Positions 7,097 to 44,027 of a stretch of 64,000 nucleotides of DNA are shown here, one piece after another. The stretch lies in assembly GCF_044324875.1 (NCBI RefSeq), contig NZ_CP172185.1. One strand, 5' to 3'. Origin of the DNA: Escherichia coli. GTDB taxonomy: Bacteria; Pseudomonadota; Gammaproteobacteria; Enterobacterales; Enterobacteriaceae. The position numbers were made by a program, and so were the translations under genes. The notes under the pieces are model-generated. The model searched no databases. It was not told the origin of the DNA and saw only the letters and a list, made by a program, of their open reading frames with translations. Numbering within the stretch: position 1 is the first letter of the stretch; each line of letters starts with the position of its first letter.

Positions 7097-7121
7097 TAAG
7101 GCTGTGTTGATGGGCAGAGGG

Positions 7122-7406
7122 TTATGTTACAGGGAACTGTCGGCGGGTATGGACTACGTTTACTATTTCAATACTTGAGGTTGTCACGCGGTACAGAATT
7201 ATATAATTGGGGTGAGCCACAATCTCACGTAAGCCTGGCACTCTGTCGCTTGGGGGGTATAAATACGGATGTTCGGATAATGGCAGCACACACCCCCTTA
7301 ATCGCTGCCATAAGCGTTCTGCCGCATCTATGTCGAAACGAGCAATGTAACTAGTTATATCATCCAGGTCGGTATCTGCGCTTTCAGGCCATAACACAGG
7401 TAACAT
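7122..7406 (-). CDS. parE: ParE/RelE-superfamily toxin (ParE2-like) of a three-gene TA cassette
   Basis: 94 aa. N-terminal LWPESADTDLDDITSYIARFDIDAAERLWQRL and C-terminal IVAHPNYIILYRV fit the ParE pattern. Start abuts the stop of the upstream antitoxin. Confidence 0.8.
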   Translation of the reverse strand: MLPVLWPESADTDLDDITSYIARFDIDAAERLWQRLRGCVLPLSEHPYLYPPSDRVPGLREIVAHPNYIILYRVTTSSIEIVNVVHTRRQFPVT

Positions 7407-7598
7407 TTACTGTTCACTCCGTTCCTTGCGTATTTTAGCAAAGCGTTCTGCCATTCTGCGCTCAACTTCGTCATGGGGAATTGCTGGGCGCGGATCTGCA
7501 AGGCTTGCAGCTACTTTGGCTCGCAGCCATTCGTTGTAACTGTTTTCTTGTTCAATAGTTTCAAACTCAGAAACCATTGGTGAAAGGGCCGTATTCAT
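7407..7598 (-). CDS. paaA: PaaA2-like antitoxin (63 aa)
   Basis: ATG at 7598 preceded by GGAGG. MNTALSPMVSEFETIEQENSYNEWLRAKVAASLADPRPAIPHDEVERRMAERFAKIRKERSEQ resembles the recalled PaaA2 antitoxin of O157 prophage three-component systems. Confidence 0.7.
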   Translation of the reverse strand: MNTALSPMVSEFETIEQENSYNEWLRAKVAASLADPRPAIPHDEVERRMAERFAKIRKERSEQ

Positions 7599-7627
7599 GG
7601 CACACCTCCGTCTGTGTATGGTGGTCA

Positions 7628-8026
7628 TTATGCCCGATGCCCTTTCCGGGCAGCGAGCCATCTTTCAATTGTGCGATCCATTAACTCTTTTTTGTCTTTC
7701 ATCTCCTGAAGCATTTGCTCTTGATCTTCCTCTGGAAATGCCTCAAATGTTTGAAGTAGCTCCTTTTGCCTAGGAGTTATTTTTATTATATCTTGTATTC
7801 TGTCATTTTTTTCTTCATTTAACGGTAAGAAGAACCAATACTGAGGATATCCTGTTGCTTCAGATAGTTTATCTAGATTAGCTGCTGTAGGGCTTGAGAT
7901 ACCACAAACCCATCTTTGAACGGATTGTTGAGTAATGCCAATTCTGCGCGCAAGTTCTGCCTGGCTCCAGCCTGTTACCAACAAAAGCTTCCTAATTCTA
8001 AGAGCACTAATTTCGAGTACACCCAT
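7628..8026 (-). CDS. paaR: PaaR-like HTH regulator (DicA paralog); start uncertain (track ORF extends to 8101 from TTG)
   Basis: XRE-type HTH (GWSQAELARRIGITQQSVQRWVCG). C-terminal LTPRQKELLQTFEAFPEEDQEQMLQEMKDKKELM is paralogous to the C-terminus of the adjacent repressor. Sits directly upstream of the antitoxin-toxin pair. Confidence 0.6.
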   Translation of the reverse strand: MGVLEISALRIRKLLLVTGWSQAELARRIGITQQSVQRWVCGISSPTAANLDKLSEATGYPQYWFFLPLNEEKNDRIQDIIKITPRQKELLQTFEAFPEEDQEQMLQEMKDKKELMDRTIERWLAARKGHRA

Positions 8027-8060
8027 CTGATATATCTTGTTTTTAAGAGTATGCTTCCCA

Positions 8061-8432
8061 TCAGGCGCGGCGACCTTGCTGCGCCAACCAACGTGCGACA
8101 AAATCTTCCATTGCTTCTTTTTTGTTTCTTAGTTCTTTTATGATCTCTTGCTGTTCATTATCAGGAAATGCACTAAATATTTGTAGCAATTCCAGCTGGT
8201 TAGGGGTTAATGCTATAGCTCTTGATGATGGAGACTCTGTTATGTCTTCTGGCTCAATATCAAGATAACCCCCTGGCATCCCATATGTTTGTTCAATACG
8301 TCTAGCTGCTTTTTCGCCAAACGTAGCCTTACCGCTCATTAACTGAGATAAGTAACTTTTCTCTTTGGGTGGCAAAGTTCTGTCTTTGAACCACTCTTTG
8401 AGGCGTAAACGCCGAATCTCTCTTGTTTCCAT
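8061..8432 (-). CDS. dicA: Prophage immunity repressor, DicA-like (HTH_XRE)
   Basis: 123 aa. HTH (SYLSQLMSGKATFGEKAARRIEQTYG) and C-terminal LTPNQLELLQIFSAFPDNEQQEIIKELRNK resemble recalled Qin DicA. Divergent from the cro-like gene. Confidence 0.75.
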   Translation of the reverse strand: METREIRRLRLKEWFKDRTLPPKEKSYLSQLMSGKATFGEKAARRIEQTYGMPGGYLDIEPEDITESPSSRAIALTPNQLELLQIFSAFPDNEQQEIIKELRNKKEAMEDFVARWLAQQGRRA

Positions 8433-8535
8433 ACATGCATTATCTTTAGTAATTGCGAAATAAGCAAATACTTGACTGGTTTATTTAGTTACGTATAAAC
8501 TTTTGCTTGCACTAAAGTATGTTGAGATCGAAATC
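8433..8535. promoter_or_regulatory. Divergent immunity promoter/operator region between the repressor and cro-like genes
   Basis: Sigma70-like rightward promoter TTGACT (8472..8477), 16 bp spacer, TATAAA (8494..8499). Flanked by partially palindromic TTTAGTAA / ACTAAAG motifs that may be operators. Confidence 0.5.
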
Positions 8536-8823
8536 ATGACTCTAAAGGAATTCATCAAATCATTAAAAACTGGAGAAGCAAAAAAATTTGCTGCCAACCT
8601 TGGTGTGTCTCCGTCCTTCTTGTCTCAAATGGCATCTGGCAGTTCACCAGTGTCTCCTGTTCGTGCGTTAATGATAGAAGCAGAAACTGCAGGGCATGTT
8701 ACAAGAAGAGAGTTGAGGCCGAATGACTGGGATCTTATATGGCCGGAATACACCGGAATTACGCCCCCTTCAAGTCATAAATATGAGCTTAACACCAAAA
8801 AAGTTGATGGGGTTGATTCATGA
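8536..8823 (+). CDS. Cro-like regulator, YdaS/DicC-type HTH
   Basis: Internal ATG at 8536 of track ORF 8503..8823. Motif KFAANLGVSPSFLSQMASGSSPVSPVRALMIEAETAGHV resembles Rac YdaS. First rightward gene. Confidence 0.7.
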   Translation: MTLKEFIKSLKTGEAKKFAANLGVSPSFLSQMASGSSPVSPVRALMIEAETAGHVTRRELRPNDWDLIWPEYTGITPPSSHKYELNTKKVDGVDS

Positions 8824-9245
8824 AAATCAAACATGAGCACATCCGCATGGCGATGAATGCCTGGGCGCATCCGGACGGCGAAAAAGTACCGGCTGCGAAA
8901 ATTACCAAAGCGTATTTCGAACTGGGTATGACGTTCCCGGAACTGTACGACGACAGCCACCCTGAAGCCCTGGCGCGTAATACCCAGAAAATTTTCCGCT
9001 GGGTAGAGAAAGACACCCCTGATGCAGTTGAAAAAATTCAGGCGTTGTTACCAGCGATCGAAAAGGCAATGCCACCTTTGCTGGTGGCCAGAATGCGCAG
9101 CCACAGTTCAGCTTATTTTCGGGAGCTGGTGGAGATGCGGGAACGACTGGTGAGAGACGCTGATGATTTTGTCGCGGTGGCAATAGCTGGCTTCAACCAG
9201 ATCAACCGTGGTGGCCCGGCCGGAAATGCTGTGGCTGTGCATTGA
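8820..9245 (+). CDS. YdaT-like protein (proposed CII-like regulator in Rac-type prophages)
   Basis: 141 aa starting MKIKHEHI, as recalled for Rac YdaT; overlaps the cro-like stop (translational coupling). Confidence 0.7.
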   Translation: MKIKHEHIRMAMNAWAHPDGEKVPAAKITKAYFELGMTFPELYDDSHPEALARNTQKIFRWVEKDTPDAVEKIQALLPAIEKAMPPLLVARMRSHSSAYFRELVEMRERLVRDADDFVAVAIAGFNQINRGGPAGNAVAVH

Positions 9246-9316
9246 TCGGCAATATTCATACCGGATCTCTTTCGGTAATACGTGATTAAAAAGATTCGGT
9301 ATCTGAAGAGGTTAGT

Positions 9317-10387
9317 ATGGCTAATGCCTGGCTCAGATTATGGCATGACATGCCAAATGACCCCAAGTGGCGAACCATTGCCCGGGTGTCAGGTCAGCCA
9401 ATTGCAACAGTGATGGCTGTGTATATCCACCTCCTGGTGAGCGCGTCACGAAATGTCACGCGAGGTCACATTGATGTCACGACCGAGGATTTGGCAAGTG
9501 CGCTCGATGTGACAGAAGAGATGATTGATTCAATTTTGCAGACGATGCAGGGGCGGGTACTTGATGGTGATTTAATCACTGGATGGGAAAAACGCCAGGT
9601 GCTGAAAGAGGACAACGGCAATATTTCGCAAACCGCAAAATCTCCTGCAGAGCGCAAGAGGGCGCAGCGAGAGAGGGAAAGAAAGCGGGAACAAAATGGC
9701 GATTGTCACGGCGCGTCACGAAATGTCACGCACATGTCACGACGAGTCACGACAGATAAAGATACAGATAAAGATACAGATCAAGAAGATCAAAACACTA
9801 TGGTCCATGGCGTGAAAAACGCCACGAACCAGGCTGGGGATGTTCAGACCGTCAATCCTGATCAGCCCGCAGGCACGACACCGGAAGCCGATTCAGCGTA
9901 TGCGCTGAAAGCCGATTCGGGCGCTGTGCAGCAGGCGATGACCGCAGGGTCGGAGCAATCACACCAACTGCAGCAGCCTGAAGCCGATTCCGCGATTCAG
10001 CGGGAAGCCGATCGGGTAGTCCCGGAAAACACCGGGCAGCCTGTGGGACGAGTGGATTATCCGGATGTGTTCGAACAGGTCTGGCGGGAATACCCGTTGC
10101 GTGCCGGGGCAAACCCGAAGAAATCCGCTTTCAGTGCCTGGAAGGCCAGATTACGCGAGGGGGTGCCACCGCAGGTCATGCTGGATGGTGTGAGGCGTTA
10201 CGCGAGGTACCTGGCGGCGACCGGGAAAGCGGGAACGGAATTTGTTCAGCGGGCGACAACGTTTTTTGGACCTGACCGGAATTTTGAAAACCCCTGGTTG
10301 CTCCCGACTGGCGGGACGAACAACCAGCGTTGTGTGAATCATATTTCCGAACCGGATACCGAAATTCCACCAGGTTTCAGGGGGTGA
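9317..10387 (+). CDS. Replication initiator / replisome organiser (O-like, with conserved phage C-terminal domain)
   Basis: 356 aa. N-terminal MANAWLRLWHDMPNDPKWRTIA and C-terminal FEQVWREYPLRAGANPKKSAFSAWKARL are typical of phage replication initiators. Iteron clusters lie inside the gene. Confidence 0.75.
   Translation: MANAWLRLWHDMPNDPKWRTIARVSGQPIATVMAVYIHLLVSASRNVTRGHIDVTTEDLASALDVTEEMIDSILQTMQGRVLDGDLITGWEKRQVLKEDNGNISQTAKSPAERKRAQRERERKREQNGDCHGASRNVTHMSRRVTTDKDTDKDTDQEDQNTMVHGVKNATNQAGDVQTVNPDQPAGTTPEADSAYALKADSGAVQQAMTAGSEQSHQLQQPEADSAIQREADRVVPENTGQPVGRVDYPDVFEQVWREYPLRAGANPKKSAFSAWKARLREGVPPQVMLDGVRRYARYLAATGKAGTEFVQRATTFFGPDRNFENPWLLPTGGTNNQRCVNHISEPDTEIPPGFRG
9440..9795. repeat. 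Putative replication origin: two iteron clusters plus an A/T-rich tandem repeat inside the O-like gene
   Basis: TCACGAAATGTCACGC-GAGGTCACATTGATGTCACGA at about 9444..9490 and GTCACGGCGCGTCACGAAATGTCACGCACATGTCACGACGAGTCACGA at about 9700..9750 (at least 8 GTCACG-type repeats); GATAAAGATACA x2 at about 9757..9790. Confidence 0.5.
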
Positions 10388-10393
10388 AGGATT

Positions 10394-11140
10394 ATGAAAA
10401 ATATAGCGGCAGGAGGTGTTCTTGAACGTATCCGCAAGCTGGCACCACAGCATGTAACCGCGCCGTACCGGACGGCAGAAGAGTGGCGTGAGTGGCAACT
10501 TGCGGAAGGCCAGAAACGTTGCGAGGAGATCAACCGTCAGAATCGTCAGTTACGGGTGGAAAAAATTCTGAATCGCTCCGGTATCCAGCCGTTGCACCGC
10601 AAATGTTCGTTTGCGAATTACTGGGTGCAGAACGACGGCCAGCGATATGCGCTGAGCCAGGCAAAATCCATCGCGGACGTACTGAGAACCGGATGCACAA
10701 ATTTCGTGTTCAGCGGTAAGCCGGGTACCGGAAAAAATCACCTGGCAGCCGCCATCGGTAATCATCTTCTGGCGAAAGGTCGCAGCGTGATTGTGGTCAC
10801 GGTGGCTGATGTGATGCTGGCGCTACACGGCATCTACGATAACAAAAACTCAGGCGAAAAATTTTTGCAGGGTTTGTGTGACGTTGACCTGCTGGTTCTG
10901 GATGAGATTGGCATGCAGCGTGATACGCGCAACGAACAGGTCACACTGAACCAGATCGTCGATCGCAGAACAGCCGCGATGCGCAGTGTCGGGATGCTGA
11001 CGAACCTGAATCATACCGCAATGAGCACCCTGCTTGGCGGGCGCGTGATGGACCGCATGACCATGAACGGTGGGCGCTGGGTGAATTTTAACTGGGAGAG
11101 CTGGCGTGCGAATGTCGGTCAGCCAGGAATTGAAAAGTAA
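10394..11140 (+). CDS. DnaC-like helicase loader (IstB/DnaC AAA+ ATPase)
   Basis: 248 aa with Walker A FSGKPGTGKNHLAAAIG and Walker B LLVLDEIG; directly follows the initiator gene. Confidence 0.85.
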   Translation: MKNIAAGGVLERIRKLAPQHVTAPYRTAEEWREWQLAEGQKRCEEINRQNRQLRVEKILNRSGIQPLHRKCSFANYWVQNDGQRYALSQAKSIADVLRTGCTNFVFSGKPGTGKNHLAAAIGNHLLAKGRSVIVVTVADVMLALHGIYDNKNSGEKFLQGLCDVDLLVLDEIGMQRDTRNEQVTLNQIVDRRTAAMRSVGMLTNLNHTAMSTLLGGRVMDRMTMNGGRWVNFNWESWRANVGQPGIEK

Positions 11141-11163
11141 TTTTATCGGGGAGAAAAAATTTA

Positions 11164-11934
11164 ATGGAAACCGTTTTAGACGCACTGAAAGCAATGGGAA
11201 AAGCCACGTCGGTAGAATTGGCTACGCGACTTGATATCAGTCGTGAAGAAGTTCTGAACGAGCTGTGGGAACTCAAAAGAAATGGCCTCGTTGATAAAAC
11301 TGGTCACATCTGGTTTCTGGCTGGCGAAGGTGAATCCCGGGTAACCGAAGAGCGACCAGTAAAATCTGAAGCACAGGATATGCTGACCGGGGAGGTTGAA
11401 CAAAAAGTTACCGCAGACATGATGATTGAGTTTATCAGTCAGGAGGGGGCTAAAACGTGTGAGGAACTGGCGGGTAAGTTCGGTGTCAGCACTCGCAAGG
11501 TTGCTTCCACACTGGCGGTAGTAACCGCAACGGGGCGGCTGGCACGCGTTAATCGGAACGGTAAATTTAGTTACTGCATGCCGGGCGATAATTTACCGGC
11601 AGAGCCGAAAGCTGCACCGGTAACGAAAACGGCTGGTAAGGCCTTTCCTCAGCCAGCAGGTGTTGCGTTACCAGTACAGGAAGCTGCAACACAGGAAGAA
11701 ATTACAACAGATACTGTGGCGGACATTGTGCAGTCGCTGCCATCGTTTACTGAAACGCGAGCGGATGACCTGGTTTTACCATCGCTGCATATGGCAAACC
11801 GCGAATTGCGTCGGGCGAAAAATCATGTTCAGAAGTGGGAGCGAGTCTGCGCCGCGCTGCGGGAGCTGAACAAGCACCGGGATATTGTTCGACAGATTAC
11901 TGATTCTTCCCGCCGTGTTGTATCGGAAAAGTGA
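11164..11934 (+). CDS. Hypothetical phage protein with N-terminal winged-helix-like region
   Basis: 256 aa; N-terminus ELATRLDISREEVLNELWELKRNGLVDKTG is wHTH-like; Ala/Pro-rich linker. Confidence 0.55.
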   Translation: METVLDALKAMGKATSVELATRLDISREEVLNELWELKRNGLVDKTGHIWFLAGEGESRVTEERPVKSEAQDMLTGEVEQKVTADMMIEFISQEGAKTCEELAGKFGVSTRKVASTLAVVTATGRLARVNRNGKFSYCMPGDNLPAEPKAAPVTKTAGKAFPQPAGVALPVQEAATQEEITTDTVADIVQSLPSFTETRADDLVLPSLHMANRELRRAKNHVQKWERVCAALRELNKHRDIVRQITDSSRRVVSEK

Positions 11935-12344
11935 TTGCCGGAGGCGCTTATGGCAAAAGTATTTACACAAGAAGAGCGGGAAAAATTAAAGGGCAGGTTG
12001 TCGAACTCGTGCGACAGAGCGGGCGCGAGACGTTACGACAACTGGAAGCGAAAACAGGTGCGACAAGATATCTGCTGAGCGTTCTTGCCAGAGAGCTGGT
12101 TGCCAGTGGTGATGTATACAATTCAGGCTACGGATTATTCCCGTCTGAGCAGGCGCGTAAAGACTGGCAAAACGCCCGCAAAAAACTATCAAGGGAAAAG
12201 GTGAAAAAACCGGTTGTGGTTGATCCTGACCTTATCTGGTCATTACCAGACGGAGAAATACGCCGCTACGACAGGCGCCTGAATATAATCTGTCGCGAGT
12301 GCCGGAAGAGCGAAGCTATGCAGCGTGTACTGGCATTTTATTAA
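11931..12344 (+). CDS. Hypothetical phage protein (137 aa), wHTH-like
   Basis: GTG start overlapping the upstream stop (GTGA). ETLRQLEAKTGATRYLLSVLARELVASGDV resembles a winged helix. Confidence 0.5.
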   Translation: MIAGGAYGKSIYTRRAGKIKGQVVELVRQSGRETLRQLEAKTGATRYLLSVLARELVASGDVYNSGYGLFPSEQARKDWQNARKKLSREKVKKPVVVDPDLIWSLPDGEIRRYDRRLNIICRECRKSEAMQRVLAFY

Positions 12345-12549
12345 GGAAATGTTAGGTATTTTAGACGTTACTAGATTAAAGAGCATTAGTTCAGATGTGA
12401 ATTGACATTTTCATGGCGCAGGGTAGAGCTAGTGTGGTTGTCCGCTTTGCGTCAAAACCAGATATTACCAGATTTAGACATATATTCCCGATAGCCCTGC
12501 TCTGATGCTACACTCTGTGCTATTTTCATGACCCCCAATAAAAATATTT

Positions 12550-13215
12550 ATGACTATTGCTGATTTCAAACGGCCTAAATTGGAGCTCCCGAACGGGGCA
12601 AACAAACTACTACTGCACTCTTGCTGTGCTCCATGTTCCGGTGAAGTGATGGAGGCGCTTCAGGCCTCGGGAATCGACTACACCATCTTTTTCTACAACC
12701 CGAACATTCATCCTCAGAAAGAGTATTTAATTCGTAAGGATGAAAATATTCGCTTTGCTGAACAACACGGCGTGCCGTTTATCGATGCTGATTACGACAC
12801 CGACAACTGGTTTGAACGTGCCAAAGGAATGGAATGGGAGCCTGAGAGGGGGATCCGTTGTACCATGTGTTTTGACATGCGTTTTGAGCGGACAGCGTTG
12901 TACGCTGCTGAAAATGGTTTCAGTGTGATCAGCAGTTCACTGGGCATTTCACGCTGGAAAAATATGCAGCAGGTTAACGAGTGTGGGCGGCGAGCTGTTG
13001 CGCATTATCCGGGTATGGTGTACTGGGATTATAACTGGCGCAAGCAGGGCGGCTCGTCCCGTATGATTGAAATCAGCAAGCGCGAAAAATTCTATCAGCA
13101 GGAATATTGTGGCTGTGTGTATTCTCTGCGCGATACCAATCTACACCGCAAATCTCAGGGACGCCCTCTTATAAAAATTGGCCAACTCCACTACGGAAAA
13201 GAAGAGAAGGAGTGA
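12550..13215 (+). CDS. queH: QueH-like protein (DUF208; putative cobalamin-independent epoxyqueuosine reductase)
   Basis: 221 aa with N-terminal [10 protein letters not shown] motif, FYNPNIHP...EY, and C-terminal EYCGCVYS cysteines, matching my recollection of DUF208/QueH. Preceded by about 200 bp non-coding with a TTGACA-like element. Confidence 0.6.
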
Positions 13216-13451
13216 TTTTATGGATCACCTTTCTGATTGATTTCATATTGGCGAGGTGACGGGAGTTAAGTAGAATTGCTGCGGGTGCTTGAGGCTATCT
13301 GCCTCGGGCATGAACACCAACGGCAGATAGAGAAAAGCCCCAGTTAACATTATGCGTCCTGCAAGACGCTTAACATTAATCTGAGGCAGAATCTATGTCT
13401 AGCAAATGTAGGTTAGCCTCTTACGTGCCGAAAGGCAAGGAGAAGCAGGCT

Positions 13452-13607
13452 ATGAAGCAGCAAAAGGCGATGTTAGTCGCCCTGATCGTCATCTGTATTA
13501 CCGTCATTGTGACGGCACTGGTAACGAGGAAAGACCTCTGCGAGGTACGAATCCGAACCGGCCAGACGGAGGTCGCTGTCTTCACAGCTTACGAACCTGA
13601 GGAGTAA
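13452..13607 (+). CDS. hok: Hok/Gef-family membrane toxin (type I toxin-antitoxin)
   Basis: MKQQKAMLVALIVICITVIVTALVTRKDLCEVRIRTGQTEVAVFTAYEPEE (51 aa) closely resembles HokD/RelF. Track ORF 13395..13607 carries an in-frame upstream extension. Upstream leader has inverted repeats. Confidence 0.8.
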   Translation: MKQQKAMLVALIVICITVIVTALVTRKDLCEVRIRTGQTEVAVFTAYEPEE

Positions 13608-13711
13608 GAGACCAGGCGAGGGAGAAATCCCTCGCCACCTCTGATGTGTCAGGCATTCTCAACGCACCCGCACTTAACCCGCTTCGGCTGTTCCTTAGTT
13701 TGTCCTGATTT

Positions 13712-14065
13712 TTATTTATTACTAATACATGATTTAATTCCTTGAATCCTCTTGTTTTTTCCATTGGTAGGATCTAACACACCTCGAAGAGAATAAAAAT
13801 CAATAGTGGTAGAGCCGTCTGCTGACTTATAAATGTCGGCATTATCTGCAACTGCTAATACACTGTAATATTTACCAATTTTTTGAGAAGTGATAGTATA
13901 CAAGAGAGGTACACGTTGCCACTCACTGAGAATGCATTCTTGTATTTCTTGTGGTGGAGAATTTGTTTTAAATGAAATGATAATATCCTGCTCTTCTCTA
14001 TAATTATAAGGGTTTACGCATCCAGAAATTGCGAAAGAAAACAGAAGAATAATGATCCTGTTCAT
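13712..14065 (-). CDS. Predicted lipoprotein (about 117 aa from internal Met), AT-rich
   Basis: Internal start MNRIIILLFSFAISGC gives a signal peptide plus lipobox. Gene is markedly AT-rich compared with neighbours. No known family. Confidence 0.55.
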   Translation of the reverse strand: MNRIIILLFSFAISGCVNPYNYREEQDIIISFKTNSPPQEIQECILSEWQRVPLLYTITSQKIGKYYSVLAVADNADIYKSADGSTTIDFYSLRGVLDPTNGKNKRIQGIKSCISNK

Positions 14066-14127
14066 TTTTTTGCCTCTTTTGAAAATATTACTCAATTATT
14101 TTAGTTGCGGTGTGTTATAAGCATTAA

Positions 14128-14427
14128 CTATAAAATATTAGATTCATAATTTTGTCCGCCGTGGTAAACGCCAGCGATAAAGACTTTATTGCCATCAACG
14201 GCAAAAGCAATAATCGTTCTGTGTCGGAAATGAGTTACCCGCATCCCCTGGCGAATATCATCGCGTTTATTGCCCCGATGCGGGAATGTAGAAAACCCAT
14301 CAAGATAATCAAGAAGCGCATTGGCATAATTGTCAGCAATGACGCTTCTTGCTTTCTCCGTTATATATCTGTGCAGGTTTATTATCTGCTGTTCGGCCTC
14401 GGGGGTAATGATGACTTCATATGTCAT
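14128..14427 (-). CDS. parE: ParE-family toxin (type II TA)
   Basis: 99 aa; MTYEVIITPEAEQQIINLHRYI...FRHRTIIAFAVDGNKVFIAGVYHGGQNYE fits ParE/RelE. Immediately downstream of the ParD-like gene. Confidence 0.8.
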   Translation of the reverse strand: MTYEVIITPEAEQQIINLHRYITEKARSVIADNYANALLDYLDGFSTFPHRGNKRDDIRQGMRVTHFRHRTIIAFAVDGNKVFIAGVYHGGQNYESNIL

Positions 14428-14432
14428 GCAGA

Positions 14433-14690
14433 TTACTTCCCGGATCGAATCGCGGCGCGAACCTGTGAAATGGAGCGTCCGTTGTTTGGATTTTCGCGGA
14501 TAGAATCAAGAGAGGGGGCGGCTGAATGCGTTAACCACGCTTCGATTGCTTTATCGCGCTCATTCAGTGCACGAAGCCCTTCACGAATGACCTCGCTTTC
14601 TGAAGCATAGGCACCGGAAGCCACACGGGCGCGCACCATGTCAGCCATCTCGTTAGTTAATGTAATGCTGAATTGTTGGGTTGTACGCAT
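14433..14690 (-). CDS. parD: ParD-family antitoxin (RHH)
   Basis: Internal ATG at 14690 with upstream GAGG. MRTTQQFSITLTNEMADMVRARVASGAYASESEVIREGLRAL is the typical ParD N-terminus. Confidence 0.75.
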   Translation of the reverse strand: MRTTQQFSITLTNEMADMVRARVASGAYASESEVIREGLRALNERDKAIEAWLTHSAAPSLDSIRENPNNGRSISQVRAAIRSGK

Positions 14691-14825
14691 GGTAAACCTC
14701 ACGGAGTAGGATAGAACACTATTCGATGATAGCACGCTGCCTGTTGACGACAACAGAAATCAGAGACAATATTGCCGCACGCCAGCCTGAACAACTGGCA
14801 CCTGCTGCGCCAGCAGAGAAAACAA

Positions 14826-15098
14826 ATGGCGCACAATACCAAAAATCACAATTCTGATGCCGTTCGTGCCAGCAGGCATGGGCGGCGTTCGCGCGTATTT
14901 AAAACCGACTGGTACCAACACCCTCCATGCACTGAAGAACAGGCCGAATGGCTGATTCAGTGTTACCGCAGACACGGATACGAGATTAAGAAAGCCCTCA
15001 GCCTCGATTATCGTCACTGGATAATCTCCGTCAGGCTTCCTTACTCAGAACGCCCACCGCGTCCGTCCCGCACATACCAGCAACGTATCTGGAGGTAA
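14826..15098 (+). CDS. Hypothetical phage protein (about 90 aa)
   Basis: Internal ATG of track ORF 14772..15098; basic N-terminus; stop overlaps the RBS of the next gene. Confidence 0.45.
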   Translation: MAHNTKNHNSDAVRASRHGRRSRVFKTDWYQHPPCTEEQAEWLIQCYRRHGYEIKKALSLDYRHWIISVRLPYSERPPRPSRTYQQRIWR

Positions 15099-15099
15099 C

Positions 15100-16158
15100 G
15101 TGCGGGTATTACTTCGACCTGTTCTGGTACCGGAACTCGGGCTGGTGGTCCTTAAGCCCGGTCGTGAATCCATGCCGGTATTTCACAATCCTCGAGTGCT
15201 GGTGGAGCCGGAACCGAAAAGTATGTGCGGCCTGCCATCCGGAGTCGTCCCTGCCGTTCGCCAGCCGCTGGCGGAGGATAAATCATTACTGCCATTTTTC
15301 AGCGATGATCGGGTGATTCGTGCTGTTGGCGGCGCTGGGGCACTGTCTGACTGGCTGTTGCGTCATGTCAAATCCTGCCAGTGGCCTCATGGTGACTATC
15401 ATCACAGTGAAATCGTCATACATCGTTACGGTACCGGCGCGATGGTGTTGTGCTGGCACTGCGACAACCAGCTGCGTGACCAGACATCCGAATCACTCGA
15501 GCAACTTGCTCATCAAAACCTGTCAGCATGGATGATTGACGTCATCGGTCACGCAATAAGCGGTACGCAGGAGCGTGAATTATCTCTGGCTGAATTATCC
15601 TGGTGGGCGGTCCGCAATCAGGTGGCGGACGCGCTTCCGGAGGCAGTATTACGTCGTTCTCTGGGGTTACGTGCGGAAAAAATCCGCTCCTTGTACCGCG
15701 AAAGCGACATCGTACCGGGAGAGCAGACCGTCACCAGCATACTGAAGCAGCGCACAAAAAATATTGCGCTACCGCCTCTCGTCCACCAGCAACAGAACCC
15801 ACCACAGGAAGAGACGGTGGTCAGCATTGCCGTTGATCCGGAGTCACCGGCTCAGTATCTCCAGCGCCAGAAACCACAACGGGAAGAGATGCCTGTATAC
15901 ACGCGCTGGGTAAAAACGCAGAAATGCATGACGTGCGGTAATCAGGCAGATGATCCGCATCACATCATTGGTCATGGACTGGGAGGGATGGGAACAAAGG
16001 CTGATGATTTGTTTGTTATTCCGCTGTGCCGTAAATGTCATAACGAACTGCACGCCGGGGTAAAAGATTTTGAAGAAAAACACGGCAGCCAGCTGTTGTT
16101 GCTGATTCGTTTTTTAATGCACGCGAGAAATTCAGGTGTCCTGAAGTGGAAAGCATAA
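15100..16158 (+). CDS. DUF968-like phage protein with C-terminal Cys/His (HNH-like) motif
   Basis: 352 aa; GTG start preceded by GGAGG. C-terminal CMTCGNQADDPHHIIGHGLGG...LCRKCHNELH. Position before rusA/Q. Confidence 0.6.
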   Translation: MRVLLRPVLVPELGLVVLKPGRESMPVFHNPRVLVEPEPKSMCGLPSGVVPAVRQPLAEDKSLLPFFSDDRVIRAVGGAGALSDWLLRHVKSCQWPHGDYHHSEIVIHRYGTGAMVLCWHCDNQLRDQTSESLEQLAHQNLSAWMIDVIGHAISGTQERELSLAELSWWAVRNQVADALPEAVLRRSLGLRAEKIRSLYRESDIVPGEQTVTSILKQRTKNIALPPLVHQQQNPPQEETVVSIAVDPESPAQYLQRQKPQREEMPVYTRWVKTQKCMTCGNQADDPHHIIGHGLGGMGTKADDLFVIPLCRKCHNELHAGVKDFEEKHGSQLLLLIRFLMHARNSGVLKWKA

Positions 16159-16524
16159 ATGACTGAAAGCATAGAATTTGTTTTGCCTTACCCGCCAACG
16201 GTGAACACCTACTGGCGACGTCGTGGCAGCACATATTTTGTATCAAAAGCCGGTGAGCGTTATCGCCGTGATGTGGCGCTCATTGTTCGCCAGCAGCGGC
16301 TGAAGTTAAACCTGTCCGGACGGCTGGCGATAAAGATTATTGCAGAGCCACCGGATAAACGTCGTCGTGACCTGGACAATATCCTGAAAGCACCACTGGA
16401 TGCGCTGACGCATGCCGGACTTCTCATAGACGACGAGCAGTTTGATGAAATCAATATTGTGCGCGGTCAGCGCGTTCCTGGGGGGCGGCTGGGCGTGAAG
16501 ATTTACAAAATTGAGAGTGAGTGA
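16159..16524 (+). CDS. rusA: Holliday junction resolvase RusA
   Basis: 121 aa; PPTVNTYWRRRGSTYFVSKAGERYRRDVA...DKRRRDLDNILKAPLDALTHAGLLIDDEQ matches the RusA family. Confidence 0.85.
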   Translation: MTESIEFVLPYPPTVNTYWRRRGSTYFVSKAGERYRRDVALIVRQQRLKLNLSGRLAIKIIAEPPDKRRRDLDNILKAPLDALTHAGLLIDDEQFDEINIVRGQRVPGGRLGVKIYKIESE

Positions 16525-17111
16525 TCGTAAATATGATATACCCGGAAATTACAGGCAAAAGCGGCGAGCATTTACGTCTAAAAACGCTGGAAGCCGTCTG
16601 GATCCAGGGGAAATTACGGATGTGGGGGCGTTGGTCGTATATCAGTGGAGGGACTAGCGGTAACATGTTTAACCAACTGCTTGTATCCAGCAAAATTACC
16701 AAAACTGCAATCAACGATGCGCTGCGCCGTATGAAAAAGTCAGGCATTACGAAACCAGAGCTCGAAGCTTATTTGCGCGAAATACTCAACAGTAAAAACA
16801 AAAGTAGTCTGGCGTTTTGCTCGGACGATGAAGGCCTGAAGATTGACGGTGTGATCGCCTCGGTGCTGATGAATAATGATTACCGTTCTCTATACGGTGT
16901 GATTGTTGGCCGGTATCGTCTGCGTAAGAGCAAGTTGCAAATGGCCAATGAGCTTCATATTAAACATCCTGACTGGGCGCTCATTACCTGTCGCCGCCGA
17001 GTTGACACATGGATAAGTTTGGCCGAATCGCTCCTGTACGTTCCACTATGTGATGCGTTTGGCACAAATAGCGACAGATTTAAATTGCAAAGTGAGCAAG
17101 AAAGTGCTTGA
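16521..17111 (+). CDS. Late-gene antiterminator Q-like protein
   Basis: 196 aa directly upstream of the tR'-like terminator and lysis genes. LEAVWIQGKLRMWGRW resembles the conserved N-terminal motif of phage 82/DLP12-type Q proteins. Family assignment is tentative. Confidence 0.6.
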   Translation: MIVNMIYPEITGKSGEHLRLKTLEAVWIQGKLRMWGRWSYISGGTSGNMFNQLLVSSKITKTAINDALRRMKKSGITKPELEAYLREILNSKNKSSLAFCSDDEGLKIDGVIASVLMNNDYRSLYGVIVGRYRLRKSKLQMANELHIKHPDWALITCRRRVDTWISLAESLLYVPLCDAFGTNSDRFKLQSEQESA

Positions 17112-17160
17112 ATTGTGATAAGCTCGGGACGAAAAGCGAACTGAGCAACATAATAGTAAG

Positions 17161-17186
17161 AACCCGCCATTGTGCGGGTTTTTTTG
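17161..17186 (+). terminator. Rho-independent terminator (tR'-like) about 50 nt after Q
   Basis: AACCCGC-CATTGTG-CGGGTT followed by TTTTTTT. Confidence 0.6.
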
Positions 17187-17510
17187 TCTGCACAACAGGT
17201 AAGAGCACTGAACCCGCAGACCTCGCGGAACTGGTGAAAGGTGCCGCGCAGTGCTCTTATCGTTGTGGTGAAGCTCAATGGCGAGCTAGCAGATAGGCGA
17301 CAGTGAAAATACTAGTCATGTATCTGACCGCCGCGCGTACTGCAATCGGCAGCGCACCGATGGAAGCCGGTTCGATTCCGGCCGCCACAACCCAAACTGA
17401 GCCGTAGCCACTGGCTGTCCTGAACTCCTCAGTGATAGTTACGCTGCGGCCTTCTTTTTCCCCTTCCTAATACAAGAACTACGCAATCCGTTACTGGCGG
17501 AGGCGTTGCT

Positions 17511-17726
17511 ATGAAATCCATGGATAAGATAACAACGGGTGTCGCCTATGGCACCTCGGCAGGCAGTGCCGGGTACTGGTTTTTACAGTGGCTTGATCAG
17601 GTTAGTCCGTCACAGTGGGCTGCTATTGGTGTGCTGGGGAGTCTGGCACTGGGCTTTCTGACTTATCTGACGAATCTGTATTTCAAAATTAAAGATGATC
17701 GGCGCAAAGTGGCGCGGGGAGAGTAG
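17511..17726 (+). CDS. S: Holin, phage 21 S21 pinholin type
   Basis: 71 aa; [71 protein letters not shown] is near-identical to recalled S21. GGAGG RBS. Confidence 0.9.
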
Positions 17727-17729
17727 GCG

Positions 17730-18041
17730 ATGAATAAAAAATACGAACTGGTTATTAAAGGGATAAGTAGTCACCCGGATAAGGTTGTGGTTACTGTGGC
17801 GCTGGAGAGCGACGGCTATCCGACGCTGTTTTCGCCGCATGTGGTGATTAAGCTTGATCGTGTTGACGGCGCAGCGCTGGAGCTTTATGAAGCAGAGGCG
17901 AAAAAACGAGCGAAGAAGATTTTTATGGATGCTGCTGCCGGGTTATGTGAAGCGTGGTCGTTGCCGGAAAAGCGCCTCCATTCAGAGGCGCGGTATACCA
18001 TAAAAATTAACGGTTCAGATAACTCAATTGCTGGTTTTTAA
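17730..18041 (+). CDS. Hypothetical protein (103 aa) inserted between holin and endolysin
   Basis: Starts 4 nt after the holin stop with GGAGAG upstream; no known motif. Confidence 0.5.
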   Translation: MNKKYELVIKGISSHPDKVVVTVALESDGYPTLFSPHVVIKLDRVDGAALELYEAEAKKRAKKIFMDAAAGLCEAWSLPEKRLHSEARYTIKINGSDNSIAGF

Positions 18042-18277
18042 CCTTTTGTCTCAGTTGGCTTTCCAATATCTTTCATTGGTAGCAGCATTTCGATATTGCT
18101 TTTGATATATGGATTATCTGCATGTTCTGTTAATTGATAAATGATAGCATTTTTTTCATTCTGGTCTAATACAGAAAACATAACTGCAATCATATATTTA
18201 AGAGCCTCAATTTCTCCTGTTGTTGAGTTGGGGGATGAACAGTCCGCTGTAACATTAATAAAAGTTTCTTTTTTCAT
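18038..18277 (-). CDS. Hypothetical AT-rich ORF (79 aa), opposite strand, inside the lysis cassette
   Basis: Convergent with 17730..18041; markedly AT-rich compared with flanks, suggesting a horizontally acquired insert. Confidence 0.4.
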   Translation of the reverse strand: MKKETFINVTADCSSPNSTTGEIEALKYMIAVMFSVLDQNEKNAIIYQLTEHADNPYIKSNIEMLLPMKDIGKPTETKG

Positions 18278-18401
18278 ATCAGATCCTTAGATGGGGTAGC
18301 TCAGCCAACCACCCGAGCCTTAACCGGAACGCCAGTGCCCACTACACTACTGGCGGGCTGAGGCTTTAACATATCCAGGGTTCAGAAAACGATAAATATC
18401 C

Positions 18402-18935
18402 ATGAGCACAAAAATCAGATACGGCCTGTCGGCTGCCGTTCTGGCGTTGATTGCTGCAGGTGCATCCGCTCCCGTCATTCTTGACCAGTTTCTGGACGAA
18501 AAAGAAGGTAATCACACTACGGCATACCGTGATGGCTCCGGTATATGGACCATCTGTCGGGGTGCCACGATGGTGGATGGAAAACCCGTTTTTCCCGGTA
18601 TGAAACTGTCGAAGGAAAAATGCGACCAGGTCAACGCCATCGAACGGGATAAGGCGCTGGCATGGGTGGAGCGCAATATTAAAGTTCCACTGACCGAAGC
18701 ACAGAAAGCGGGTATTGCGTCATTCTGTCCCTATAACATTGGCCCCGGTAAGTGTTTCCCGTCGACGTTTTATAAGCGGCTGAATGCCGGTGATCGTAAG
18801 GGCGCATGCGAGGCGATTCGCTGGTGGATAAAAGATGGTGGGCGCGATTGCCGCATACGTTCAAATAACTGCTATGGACAGGTTATTCGTCGTGACCAGG
18901 AAAGCGCATTAGCCTGTTGGGGAATAGATCAGTGA
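18402..18935 (+). CDS. R: SAR endolysin (lysozyme, R21-like)
   Basis: 177 aa. N-terminal hydrophobic signal-anchor-release segment [21 protein letters not shown] followed by a lysozyme domain ([20 protein letters not shown]). Confidence 0.9.
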
Positions 18936-19399
18936 GCAGAGTCGCCGCGATTATTTATGCTCTGGTTATCTGCACTATCGTCTGCCTGTCGTGGGCGGTC
19001 AATCATTACCGTGATAACGCCATAGCCTACAAAGAACAGCGTGATAAAAAAGTCAGTGAGCTGAAGCAGGCGATCGCCACCATCGCTGACATGCAGCAGC
19101 GTCAGCGTGATGTTGCTGCGCTCGATGCAAAGTACTCGAGAGAATTAGCCAATGCGAAAGCTGAAAATGAAACTCTGCGCGCTGATGTTGCCGCTGGTCG
19201 TAAGCGCCTGCGGGTCAATGTCAGTTGCTCCGAAGCCGTGCGTGAAGCCACCGGACCCACCAGCGTGGATAATGCAACCAGCCCCCGACTGGCAGACACC
19301 GCTGAACGGGATTATTTCACCCTCAGAGAACGGTTGATGACGATGCAGAAGCAACTGGAAGGGGCACAGGAGTATATCCGCACTCAGTGCATTAAGTAG
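18932..19399 (+). CDS. Rz: i-spanin Rz
   Basis: GTG start overlapping the endolysin stop. [40 protein letters not shown] resembles lambda Rz. Confidence 0.85.
19152..19337 (+). CDS. Rz1: o-spanin Rz1, embedded in Rz in another frame
   Basis: 61 aa lipoprotein [20 protein letters not shown] with Pro-rich [27 protein letters not shown], like lambda Rz1. Confidence 0.8.
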
Positions 19400-19441
19400 C
19401 CTTTTTATCGTGGTAAACATTTCGCAGGGTATGAGGTATTT

Positions 19442-19792
19442 ATGCCATCACGAATCCCACGCGCCTGCCGTAAGCGTGGATGTGCAGGTACAACCACAGA
19501 CAGTTCTGGTTACTGCGATAAACATCGTGGCGAAGGATGGGTACAGCATCAACGCGGACTGAGCCGCCACCAGCGTGGCTATGGCTCGAAATGGGATGCC
19601 ATACGTGCGCGCATACTGAAGCGTGATAATCATCTGTGTCAGAACTGCCTGTGCAATGGGAGAGCTGTTGAAGCCAGAACTGTGGACCACATCATTCCGA
19701 AAGCTCATGGTGGCACGGATGCAGACAGTAACCTGCAGAGTCTGTGCTGGCCCTGTCATAAAGCAAAAACAGCGCGCGAACGCATCAATTGA
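19442..19792 (+). CDS. HNH endonuclease (terminase-associated)
   Basis: 116 aa with Cys clusters and HIIPKAHGGTDADSNLQSLCWPCH motif; located just upstream of terS/terL as in HK97-like phages. Confidence 0.8.
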   Translation: MPSRIPRACRKRGCAGTTTDSSGYCDKHRGEGWVQHQRGLSRHQRGYGSKWDAIRARILKRDNHLCQNCLCNGRAVEARTVDHIIPKAHGGTDADSNLQSLCWPCHKAKTARERIN

Positions 19793-19939
19793 TAACAGCT
19801 CCCATCTGCAGGGGAGGGGCGGGTCAAATCTCTGCAACCCAGGCTGCTCAGTACCGCCGCCTTGCCTTTCCTCGCATCGCCGCAGGTTCGAAAACTTTTT
19901 TTTGGAAAGTTATTAAATGATTGATAGGTAAAACCGATT

Positions 19940-20422
19940 ATGTCAGGACCCCCGAAAACCCCGCCACGCCTGCATTTGATACGAGGCAACCCCTCAAAGC
20001 GCCCCGTTAAAGACCCAAAAAAAACCGCTAAAAAGGATGAAAAAGGTCTCCCTAAAATTCCGCAACATTTAGGGTCGCAGGGGAAGTACTGGTTCAGGCG
20101 AATGGCGGAAGAACTGAATGCGGAAGGGATCATTTCTCAGCTTGATGCGCGTGCACTCGAGTTACTGGTGGAAGCCTACACCGAATACCGGCATTACTGC
20201 GAAACACTCGATGTTGAGGGGTATACCTACCGCACGGAAACGCAGAACGGTGATGTGCTGATTAAGGCACACCCGGCTGCTGCGATGAAAGCGGATGCCT
20301 GGAAGCGGATCCGGGCGATGCTTGCAGAATTTGGTATGTCACCGGCAAGCCGGGCGAAAGTAAATACCGCCGGACCGGATGATGTTGATCCGCTGGCGGA
20401 GCTTTTAAAAGCGAGAGACTGA
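19940..20422 (+). CDS. terS: Terminase small subunit
   Basis: 160 aa, basic N-terminus; stop overlaps the terL start. Confidence 0.7.
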   Translation: MSGPPKTPPRLHLIRGNPSKRPVKDPKKTAKKDEKGLPKIPQHLGSQGKYWFRRMAEELNAEGIISQLDARALELLVEAYTEYRHYCETLDVEGYTYRTETQNGDVLIKAHPAAAMKADAWKRIRAMLAEFGMSPASRAKVNTAGPDDVDPLAELLKARD

Positions 20423-38096: not shown

Positions 38097-40219
38097 TACC
38101 GGGCGATGTCATTGAAATCTGTGATGATGACTATGCCGGTATCAGCACCGGTGGTCGTGTGCTGGCGGTGAACAGCCAGACCCGGACGCTGACGCTCGAC
38201 CGTGAAATCACGCTGCCATCCTCCGGTACCACGCTGATAAGCCTGGTTGACGGAAGTGGCAATCCGGTCAGCGTGGAGGTTCAGTCCGTCACCGACGGCG
38301 TGAAGGTAAAAGTGAGCCGGGTTCCTGACGGCGTTGCCGAGTACAGCGTGTGGGGGCTGAAGCTGCCGACGCTGCGCCAGCGCCTGTTCCGCTGCGTGAG
38401 TATCCGTGAGAACGACGACGGCACGTATGCCATCACTGCCGTGCAGCATGTACCGGAAAAAGAGGGCATCGTGGATAACGGGGCACACTTTGACGGTGAC
38501 CAGAGCGGCACGGTGAATGGTGTCACGCCGCCAGCAGTGCAGCACCTGACTGTCGAAGTCACCGCAGACAGCGGGGAGTATCAGGTACTGGCCCGCTGGG
38601 ACACGCCGAAGGTGGTGAAAGGCGTGAGTTTCATGCTTCGCCTGACCGTGGCAGCGGATGACGGCAGTGAGCGGCTGGTCAGCACGGCCCGGACGACGGA
38701 AACCACATACCGCTTCAGGCAGCTGGCGCCGGGGAACTACAGGCTGACAGTCCGGGCAGTAAATGCCCGGGGGCAGCAGGGAGACCCGGCGTCGGTATCG
38801 TTCCGGATTGCCGCACCGGCAGCGCCGTCGCGGATTGAGCTGACGCCGGGCTATTTTCAGATAACCGCCACGCCGCATCTTGCCGTTTATGATCCGACGG
38901 TGCAGTTTGAGTTCTGGTTCTCGGAAAAGCGGATTACCGATATCAGGCAGGTTGAAACCACAGCCCGTTATCTTGGTACCGGAAGTCAGTGGCTTGTCTC
39001 CGGCCAGAATATTAAACCTGGCCATGATTATTACTTTTATATCCGCAGTGTTAACACTGTCGGTAAATCGGCATTCGTGGAGGCAGTCGGTCGGGCGAGT
39101 AATGATCCTGCCGGTTACCTTAATTTTTTCAGGGGGGCGATAAATAAAACGCATCTGGGACGGGAGATCAATGAACGCATTGATGCCTCTGCACGGCGCA
39201 CTGAAGTTGAGCAACTGGAGAATGCGATTAACCGCGAAATGACGCAGCTGGAGAATGCGATTAACCGCGAAATGACGCAGCTGGAGAAAGATGTGAGGCA
39301 GCGTGCGGAGCGTGATATCGCAGAGGTGACGAAAAAAATCACGGCGTCTGAAAACAGCATAACGGAACTGGTGGCGAAAAAGAGCGGTGAACAGTCGCTG
39401 GCCATTGCGAAAGTCGACAGGAAAGTTGACAGCGTGAGCAGTGAAATCCGGCAGACAGTAAGCAGGAGCACGGAGGAGAACAGCCGACAGATAGCGCAGG
39501 TCAGGCAGTATGTTGATGATAAAAGTGCGCAAATAAGTACTGTTGTGGCGAAAAAGAGCGGTGAACAGTCAATGGCCATTGCGGAAGTTGACAGAAAAGT
39601 TGACAGGATGGGCAGCGAAATCCGGCAGACAGTAAGCAGGAGCACGGAGGAGAACAGCCGACAGATAGCGCAGATCAGACAGTATGTTGATGATAAGGGA
39701 AGTCAGATCAAACAGAGCACGGATAAAAAACTGGGATCCTGGAATGCCAGCATTGAGCAGATACAGAAAGTTCAGGAGGACACGCGCCGGAACCTGAACA
39801 GCATGTGGGCTGTGAAGCTGCAGCAGACACGGGATGGACGTCTCTATATTGCAGGTATTGGTGCCGGAATCGAAAATACGTCTGACGGAATTCAGAGTCA
39901 GATCCTGATGCAGGCAGATCGTATTGCGATGATTAACCCGGAAAATGGCAATACAACACCTTTGTTTGTGGCTCAGGGTGATCAGCTGTTCATGAATGAT
40001 GTTTTCATGAAAAAACTGACCGTGGATTTTGCCAGAGTGACGGGAGATATCCGGTCAGATAATTTTCATTCCGGTAGTCCGGGGTGGCGTTTATCAAGAA
40101 ACGGCAGCCTTGAAATTAACTCAGGAAGGCCCGGCGCAGGCCGCCTGTTTTTCAATGGCGAGCGAATCGACGTATATGACGATAACAATGTGTTAAGAGT
40201 ACGACTGGGGAGACTGTAA
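38097..40219 (+). pseudogene. J: Host specificity protein J, C-terminal fragment (distal tip diverges from lambda and carries tandem duplications)
   Basis: Continues the lambda-J-like sequence [43 protein letters not shown]. Track ORF 38159..40219. Confidence 0.85.
39214..39718 (+). repeat. Tandem duplications inside the J distal region: 2 x 33 bp and 2 x about 174 bp
   Basis: CTGGAGAATGCGATTAACCGCGAAATGACGCAG twice ([11 protein letters not shown] x2). A larger unit starting GTGGCGAAAAAGAGCGGTGAACAGTC repeats at about 39371 and 39545 with about 90 percent identity. Confidence 0.7.
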
Positions 40220-42950: not shown

Positions 42951-43032
42951 TAACCGGCTCATTTAAACCGTCTGGTCTGTTTCCTCCGGCTCTACAAAAA
43001 TAATGTCCATCATTTTTAATGGACACTATCGT

Positions 43033-43680: not shown

Positions 43681-44027
43681 TGATATCTCTCCCTGCAGGT
43701 TCGCGTATCTGGCTGGTTGCAGGTATCACCGATATGCGAAATGGCTTTAACGGCCTGGCATCAAAAGTTCAGAACGTCCTGAAGGATGACCCGTTCTCCG
43801 GACACCTGTTCATCTTCCGCGGACGCCGGGGTGACCAGATAAAAGTGTTGTGGGCTGACAGTGACGGACTGTGCCTCTTCACCAAACGCCTGGAGCGGGG
43901 CCGCTTCGTCTGGCCAGTCACCCGTGACGGCAAGGTGCACCTTACTCCGGCTCAGTTATCCATGCTTCTTGAAGGTATCAACTGGAAGCACCCGAAACGA
44001 ACGGAACGCGCTGGAATCCGCATATAA
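43680..44027 (+). CDS. tnpB: IS66-family TnpB (orf2)
   Basis: 115 aa; MISLPAGSRIWLVAGITDMRNGFNGLASKVQNVLKDDPFSGHLFIFRGRRGDQIKVLWAD is the typical IS66 Orf2. Confidence 0.85.
   Translation: MISLPAGSRIWLVAGITDMRNGFNGLASKVQNVLKDDPFSGHLFIFRGRRGDQIKVLWADSDGLCLFTKRLERGRFVWPVTRDGKVHLTPAQLSMLLEGINWKHPKRTERAGIRI

Follow-up and report, generated by a model that had tools for sequence, protein, structure and literature searches.

A canonical QueH encoded as putative cargo in a lambdoid prophage of Escherichia coli

Why should a lambdoid prophage of Escherichia coli, a species that already has the epoxyqueuosine reductase QueG, carry a gene resembling that for the non-homologous reductase QueH, and what would such a gene do for the phage or for the lysogen? 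The question is raised by a stretch of E. coli DNA of 64,000 nucleotides (nt) (NCBI RefSeq assembly GCF_044324875.1, contig NZ_CP172185.1), here called the window, to which coordinates refer unless another locus is named. On its plus strand, at 12550..13215, lies the queH coding sequence (221 amino acids plus the stop codon, with an ATG start), defined by an open reading frame (ORF) call and a match to Pfam family PF02677. An initial annotation had noted the 221-residue ORF with its CCAPCS-type cysteine motif, had suggested a QueH-like (DUF208) enzyme carried as a moron, and had left room for a diverged enzyme acting on some other substrate. The reading that we consider probable is that the gene encodes a functional, canonical and cobalamin-independent QueH, which was captured once, is carried as phage cargo and would permit completion of queuosine (Q) in lysogens without vitamin B12.

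Is the protein QueH? Residues 20–194 match positions 1–174 of the 175 in PF02677 (QueH/DUF208) at E = 1.1e-65 (221 bits), and this essentially full-length match, with which the invariant residues and the predicted fold agree, bears out the assignment first suggested by the motif. Residues 23–30 read HSCCAPCS and contain C25, C26 and C29 (codons 12622–12636); the other cysteines are C104 and C107 (in RCTMC), C145, and C187 and C189 (in YCGC). Among 1.84 billion cluster representatives there were 4775 matches at E ≤ 0.001; 63 diverse full-length representatives of the family were taken from these and aligned with Thermotoga maritima QueH. C25, C26, C104, C107, C187 and C189 are invariant in all 63 and also throughout a separate alignment (41 of 41). 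The residues N52, Y59, R62, E99, R103, K137, Q184 and G188 are likewise invariant in both alignments, and none is missing from the query. By reference to the T. maritima structure, the six invariant cysteines presumably bind a [4Fe-4S] cluster and the iron next to it; C29 is counted with them among the putative cysteine ligands. The column of residue 29 holds Cys in 59 of the 63 representatives and Asp in the other four. On this alignment CCAPC is the majority motif of the family, with Cys29 as the majority residue, and the CCAPD of T. maritima is a minority form; the distribution across the family suggests that Cys and Asp may be functionally equivalent at this position. Asp13 of T. maritima QueH, which aligns with Cys29, is the residue altered in the D13N mutant (PDB 9DCO). 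The other cysteines remarked on by the initial annotation are thus, with the exception of C145, counted as family-invariant.

Structural comparison leads to the same family. Among PDB sequences, phmmer matched only T. maritima QueH (7lc5 at E = 7.6e-22, together with its mutants at E ~1e-21). An AlphaFold2 model built from the 41-sequence alignment has a mean predicted local distance difference test score (pLDDT) of 95.6 and a predicted template modelling (TM) score of 0.91. Compared by Foldseek with T. maritima QueH (7lc5/9d86), it gives a target-normalised TM score of 0.92, a root mean square deviation of 1.2 Å and E ~1e-14; the next-best folds, TtuA, LarE and other PP-loop enzymes, score below 0.5. 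The adenine-nucleotide alpha-hydrolase-like core that characterizes the QueH fold is found in the model. The identical protein is listed in RefSeq as ‘MULTISPECIES: epoxyqueuosine reductase QueH [Enterobacteriaceae]’, presumably on grounds other than an NCBIfam model. Judged by its sequence and its predicted structure, the ORF product is a canonical QueH and not a diverged form.

How common is the gene, and does it replace QueG? Taking as a carrier any genome with at least 80% of an 871-bp query (12345–13215), queH occurs in 983 of the 5426 complete genomes of E. coli, nearly always chromosomally; among the matches listed, the copies bear a QueH annotation and no pseudogene flag. QueG is encoded in 5425 of the 5426, in agreement with the statement of the initial annotation that E. 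coli normally uses this enzyme, and every queH carrier has both reductases. Carriers include E. coli B REL606, ATCC 11303, E. coli C and ATCC 8739. The E. coli B gene (7115–7780 of its locus, L006) specifies an allele that is 96% identical in amino acid sequence to that of the window and lies in a Qin-like defective prophage with dicB and dicC; strain CUVM3 has its copy in a Rac-like one. The 96% allele in a Qin-like defective prophage is also what all four of the strains just named carry. One isolated phage, the 45-kb Escherichia phage HannyBb, carries a close copy, there annotated as ‘hypothetical protein’.

The gene sits inside a lambdoid prophage, as had been proposed, and its surroundings vary while it does not. 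In four backbones the slot that follows the Ren-like/DUF977 gene holds queH, and homology between backbones stops 6 nt past its stop codon. The gene is therefore optional, its slot is fixed and bordered by conserved modules, and the flanks around an identical allele are mosaic. No complete E. coli genome covers more than 64% of the early region of the window (8000–20000), and this at ~89% identity, whereas the queH cassette is 99.7% identical to that of many genomes; the prophage backbone is a mosaic without a counterpart among RefSeq complete genomes. At least 185 viral contigs in the IMG/VR database carry a relative, and all 80 among the matches listed encode the identical protein, so that they are uninformative about more distant phage-borne QueH. 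In 76 contigs queH differs from that of the window by 0–11 nt, a range also given as 0–4 nt, and the flanks are mosaic: upstream, homology to the window breaks at ~0.5, 1.25 or 2 kb, and downstream it usually stops 250–500 nt on, after hok/sok. In 48 of ~70 loci with identical QueH the homology extends these 250–500 nt beyond the stop codon, which means that queH is usually moved along with hok/sok. The flank pattern is that of typical lambdoid mosaicism around a mobile cassette. The lipoprotein and ParE/ParD-like arrangement further downstream in the window is rare, as just two of the ~70 loci share more than 3 kb of downstream sequence with it.

A search of deposited phage genomes by tblastn returned 25 records; of these, HannyBb alone combines a close copy with convincing status as an isolated phage. 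Faecal fragments without annotation, labelled ‘Bacteriophage sp.’, were rejected as close copies at only 32–52% identity. ‘Phage’ records of 280–380 kb were also set aside. Those named ‘Acinetobacter phage MD-2021a’ (328–379 kb), and a ‘Staphylococcus phage’ of 282 kb, do encode QueH homologues; the sizes and annotation of these records suggest bacterial DNA deposited as phage, and they should not be counted.

Where did the phages obtain the gene? The nearest relatives beyond E. coli prophages are the QueH proteins of other Enterobacterales, at 77–91% identity. Chromosomal QueH of Klebsiella variicola (WP_266268543) is 91% identical in amino acid sequence, that of Enterobacter (WP_223540464) 88% and that of an Erwinia sp. 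86%, all of the same length. Each locus of a relative that was inspected is an unremarkable chromosomal setting free of phage genes. Neighbour-joining trees built from ten sequences group the four phage alleles (those of the window, E. coli B, HannyBb and strain CUVM3) in a single clade, which has the chromosomal gene of K. variicola as its sister (91% amino acid and 83% nt identity) and is nested in a chromosomal group made up of Enterobacter, Erwinia and a further locus, L012. These relationships are most simply read as a single capture from a Klebsiella- or Enterobacter-like chromosome, in which ~116 nt of the native 5′ region came along, and a later spread among lambdoid phages. Three phage allele lineages are separated by synonymous divergence (dS) of 0.30–0.49 and non-synonymous divergence (dN) of 0.013–0.023, giving dN/dS of 0.03–0.065; queH is under strong purifying selection, and the ORF is intact in every copy inspected.

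Upstream of the gene lies a 205-bp non-coding gap at 12345–12549, which the initial annotation had put at about 200 bp. The gap falls into two parts. The first (12345..12433, no strand assigned) is a backbone-specific spacer that reaches from the Ren-like/DUF977 gene to the cassette and marks the left recombination junction: only DUF977-type backbones share it, it is not present in the E. coli B, HannyBb or CUVM3 backbones, and the DUF977 end is found without queH in other E. coli genomes. The second (12434..12549, plus strand) is a 116-nt region that travels with queH, being kept between phage backbones and homologous to the DNA upstream of queH in K. variicola. Megablast matches in other backbones begin at query position 90 (12434) or 156 (12500). 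Between the window-type cassette and those of the E. coli B and HannyBb type, upstream homology covers 116 nt from 12434, and with the CUVM3 type ~50 nt; the K. variicola chromosomal upstream region aligns with that of the phages over ~110 nt. This second part is probably a native promoter with a short AU-rich leader. Within it, at 12485..12514 on the plus strand, we place a putative sigma-70 promoter of the extended –10 kind, with a –35-like TTCCCG (12485–12490), an 18-nt spacer, TG at 12506–12507 and TACACT at 12509–12514. Four phage backbones with diverging flanks all keep the block CTCTGATGCTACAC (12500–12513) unchanged, and the core ATGCTAnnnT is likewise unchanged ahead of the chromosomal queH of Enterobacter, K. 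variicola and L012. It is the conservation alone, across phage and chromosomal orthologues, that makes the box credible as a promoter. A preQ1 or cobalamin riboswitch was considered and rejected on a sensitive Rfam scan of 11900–13700, which found only the downstream sok RNA and no riboswitch or other RNA element upstream of queH.

The status of moron that had been proposed for the gene stands in part. It is optional, occupies the same slot in mosaic backbones and has a conserved promoter-like box; it does not have a terminator of its own. On this sequence evidence we regard the moron reading of the cassette as reasonable.

From these elements a course of events can be proposed. Lambdoid phages would have captured queH once from an Enterobacteriaceae chromosome, with its ~116 nt of native 5′ region, and the gene would circulate as optional cargo, its cassette occupying the slot that separates a Ren-like gene from either hok/sok or the nin region. 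During lytic growth it would be transcribed by read-through from the early-right operon, which is on the same strand with no terminator between; in a lysogen it would probably be transcribed from its own imported extended –10-like box. The product would reduce epoxyqueuosine (oQ34) to queuosine (Q34) on tRNA-Asp, tRNA-Asn, tRNA-His and tRNA-Tyr without cobalamin, and lysogens would complete Q synthesis without B12. As cofactors QueH has a [4Fe-4S] cluster and, next to it, an iron, without cobalamin; E. coli imports cobamides and has no de novo synthesis of cobalamin. Because QueG needs cobalamin and E. coli makes none, the prophage would render the completion of Q independent of B12; lysogens probably gain a second, B12-free route beside QueG. 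The final step of Q synthesis was known to be cobalamin-dependent even before its gene was identified, and a K-12 yjeS (queG) knockout accumulates oQ (PMC4646009), which implies that K-12 is without a second reductase; the use of cobamides by E. coli is BtuB-dependent (PMC11841063). Enzymatic activity, transcription from the box in the lysogen and the B12-independence phenotype are what we infer from the identity, conservation and context of the gene.

Several observations weigh against this proposal. A generic sigma-70 consensus scan called no plus-strand promoter in the gap, and the proposed –35 element fits only three of the six consensus positions, so that of the ‘promoter-like elements’ described by the initial annotation what survives is a conserved extended –10-like box with a poor –35. 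There is no obvious Shine–Dalgarno sequence before the ATG at 12550 and no plus-strand terminator-like site in 12200–13500. No NCBIfam family matched the query at E ≤ 0.001, and the solved reference enzyme has Asp where the query has Cys, the structures covering the Asp form. The gene is also redundant with a universal queG, and deletion of queG had no reported growth effect under the conditions tested (PMC11841063); any benefit of queH must therefore be conditional.

The missing Shine–Dalgarno sequence also bears on whether the gene encodes the complete enzyme. If the true product started at Met34 (ATG 12649), it would lack the CCAPC cysteines and hence be no reductase. PHROG 3217, a family of ‘unknown function’ that matches the query at E = 1.7e-138, has a 188-position profile that aligns only with residues 34–221, and ATG 12649 is preceded by a Shine–Dalgarno-like GGTGA, in contrast to ATG 12550. 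Yet the first 33 codons differ between phage alleles almost only at synonymous third positions, that is, they are conserved as protein; the Pfam model and the chromosomal orthologues align from residue ~7–20 of the query; C25, C26 and C29 are counted as family-invariant; and the AlphaFold2 model puts residues 19–33 in the core with pLDDT above 95, including a confident N-terminal strand at 19–23. The N-terminal conservation, the Pfam alignment and the modelled strand favour the start at ATG 12550, and we find a start at Met34 barely credible. On the same sequence evidence PHROG 3217 is taken to be QueH, its phage gene models being N-terminally truncated and without C25, C26 and C29, which may be one reason why QueH was overlooked in phage annotation. 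A complete enzyme might still act on something other than tRNA, for example an epoxy-7-deazaguanine in phage DNA, or another epoxide, in the service of DNA modification or anti-restriction. Phages do modify their DNA with 7-deazaguanines by means of Q-pathway enzymes (PMC6884629), and Cys29 departs from the Asp13 of T. maritima. Against this, CCAPC is the form found in 59 of 63 family members, and the protein keeps every invariant residue and is 88–91% identical to chromosomal Enterobacteriaceae QueH in housekeeping contexts. No DpdA/TGT-like, QueA or preQ0 genes (FolE, QueD, QueE, QueC) were found among the PHROG and NCBIfam matches of neighbouring ORFs or in the annotations of four homologous prophages, a scan that took in some but not all of the small prophage ORFs. 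Taken together these points make the diverged enzyme that the initial annotation had entertained highly improbable. No oQ-type base is known from DNA.

Two further explanations accept that the protein is genuine QueH and differ over what it is for. The redundancy with queG would fit a neutral hitch-hiker or a decaying gene, spread only by lambdoid module recombination and retained because it adjoins selfish hok/sok and other toxin–antitoxin modules that favour retention of the region. A gene of this kind would hardly be expected to show dN/dS of 0.03–0.065 over dS of 0.3–0.5, to be intact in the copies inspected and free of pseudogene flags among the matches listed for the 983 genomes, or to keep all its catalytic and ligand residues, and we consider neutrality very unlikely. 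Alternatively, queH might serve the phage in lytic growth only, being transcribed from pR after induction, giving more Q-tRNA for phage translation or countering a host response, and silent in the lysogen. The gene does lie on the same strand in the early-right operon, with the replication genes on one side, the Q antiterminator on the other and no terminator ahead of it, and its promoter-like box is weak when judged by the consensus. In Shewanella, expression of queG and the Q/oQ ratio are reported to rise on phage infection, and Q has been linked to phage resistance and biofilm (bioRxiv 10.64898/2026.03.05.709803); by analogy, the oQ-to-Q step can matter in phage–host interplay, although that work has no connection to QueH. 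The invariance of the box in chromosomal orthologues, which have no phage promoter, argues instead for autonomous transcription, and queH is intact and under strong purifying selection in defective prophages that do not look inducible, such as the Qin-like one of E. coli B. A codon-bias rationale was also rejected: NAU makes up 0.575 of the Asn, Asp, His and Tyr codons in prophage genes against 0.637 in flanking host genes, and is thus not enriched in the prophage. A purely lytic role is, on balance, unlikely, though it deserves to be kept in mind; it is compatible with a canonical QueH active in lysogens, and the two are not mutually exclusive.

A broader proposal goes beyond the functional, cobalamin-independent QueH that we favour, and we offer it tentatively, as a little less probable than its negation. 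Lysogeny with queH would alter the host tRNA epitranscriptome, such that about one-fifth of E. coli strains, including B/REL606, C and ATCC 8739, would finish Q without B12 whereas K-12 stalls at oQ; phages would retain the gene for the advantage that Q, rather than oQ, gives to the lysogen or to phage translation in B12-poor or aerobic conditions; and QueH would be the first phage-delivered enzyme to be described from the tRNA-specific part of the Q pathway.

The prophage itself is integrated at tRNA-Ser(cga) (869–958), and both host flanks are 99.5–99.7% identical to E. coli chromosomes; on the left are mtfA and tRNA-Ser, and on the right zinT (47896–48546), dgcQ, dcm and hprS. Its left end is marked by an integrase (1011–2036). 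In the order given by PHROG matches, upstream of queH are a replication initiator (9317–10387), a DnaC-like loader (10394–11140), a DUF1627 gene (11164–11934) and the Ren-like/DUF977 gene (11931–12344), which ends where the 205-bp gap starts. Directly downstream is a hok/sok type I toxin–antitoxin module, composed of the sok RNA (RF01794, 13283–13457, Rfam E = 5.8e-27) and a Hok-family ORF (13395–13607). It is followed by a lipoprotein gene (phrog_914, 13712–14095) and a ParE/ParD-like toxin–antitoxin pair (phrog_5232/phrog_6494, 14128–14753), all on the minus strand, and then by a DUF968/HNH gene (15100–16158). The position between a replication module and a toxin–antitoxin cluster, as originally described, is therefore correct. 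Beyond these are the tail-tip gene J (38159–40219), a tail fibre with collagen-like Gly-X-Y repeats (41484–42812) and, between the tail-fibre region and the host zinT, a complete IS66-family element (43003–45618; TnpA, TnpB and transposase). The GC fraction is 0.39 in the gap, 0.48 in queH and 0.53 in the replication module. As for the chromosomal relatives, queH has as neighbours benE and toxin-complex genes in Photorhabdus; tmcA on one side and purC/bamC/dapA on the other in Providencia; purL on one side and glrK-glrR-glnB-hmp-glyA on the other in Erwinia; and a Fec-type iron-uptake cluster in K. variicola. In Enterobacter the order is LysR-GNAT-queH-csbD-EAL, identical in two genomes.

What is new here is not the molecular identity of the protein: the family is a known one, as are its structure and the reaction that it catalyses, and RefSeq already calls the protein QueH. 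Phage carriage of QueH appears to be undescribed. A survey by Hutinet et al. (2019) recorded no QueA, QueG or QueH homologues in viruses (PMC6884629), a statement that the present locus, if correctly read, would qualify, and no report of phage-borne QueH was found in the literature on QueH or epoxyqueuosine with phage or prophage. PHROG 3217, at present labelled ‘unknown function’, can now be annotated, with the caution that its models miss three metal ligands. Should lysogens contain active enzyme, four E. coli tRNAs would owe their Q/oQ state to prophage content as well as to the supply of B12, a tRNA-maturation enzyme would join the cargo genes of phages, and there would be relevance to gut cobamide ecology. 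Strain comparisons in studies of tRNA modification would be affected, given that K-12 is without queH and that B, C and Crooks have it; the choice of strain may bias measurements of Q/oQ.

How does the gene compare with known systems? Phage 7-deazaguanine clusters (FolE/QueD/QueE/QueC/DpdA; PMC6884629) resemble it in being phage-borne genes of the queuosine pathway. Those clusters insert preQ0-type bases into phage DNA, in contrast to the window prophage, which has a lone late-pathway tRNA enzyme with no DpdA or preQ0 genes. A closer parallel, as regards mode of carriage, is with lambdoid morons and the cargo of lysogenic conversion (bor, lom and hok/sok), which the cassette resembles as an optional single gene, variably present in a fixed slot and with its own promoter-like element; it differs in being without its own terminator and in having a composition only slightly unlike that of its flanks.

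As an enzyme, it shares family and fold with T. maritima QueH (PDB 7LC5/7LC7/9DEU) at ~30% identity, and C9, C10, C87, C90, C169 and C171 of that protein correspond to C25, C26, C104, C107, C187 and C189 of the query. The query has ~16 extra residues at the N-terminus and 25 at the C-terminus, Cys29 in place of Asp13, and its prophage location. The chromosomal QueH of Enterobacteriaceae and Erwiniaceae is like it in length and in the upstream extended –10-like box; the chromosomal genes are in ordinary neighbourhoods, whereas the window copy is in a lambdoid prophage and moves between backbones. QueH is said to work without cobalamin (this being attributed to Zallot in 2017). The E. coli QueG (YjeS) carries out the same conversion of oQ-tRNA to Q-tRNA and co-occurs in every queH carrier, but it is non-homologous to QueH, being a cobalamin and two-[4Fe-4S] enzyme akin to reductive dehalogenases (PMC4646009, PMC5175355).

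Possession of two non-orthologous reductases is known from other organisms. Acinetobacter baylyi ADP1, according to what Zallot et al. reportedly found in 2017, has both QueG and QueH and loses Q only when both are deleted. Many strains of Streptococcus pyogenes and Streptococcus suis also have the two enzymes (PMC12632869). Closer to E. coli, both are recorded for Enterobacter ludwigii, and both are encoded on one 4.41-Mb Pantoea contig; the dual-reductase state in Enterobacterales predates the transfer to phage. E. coli carriers of queH are like all of these in combining QueG with QueH, and differ in that the second reductase is strain-variable and delivered by a prophage rather than being a fixed gene of the chromosome.

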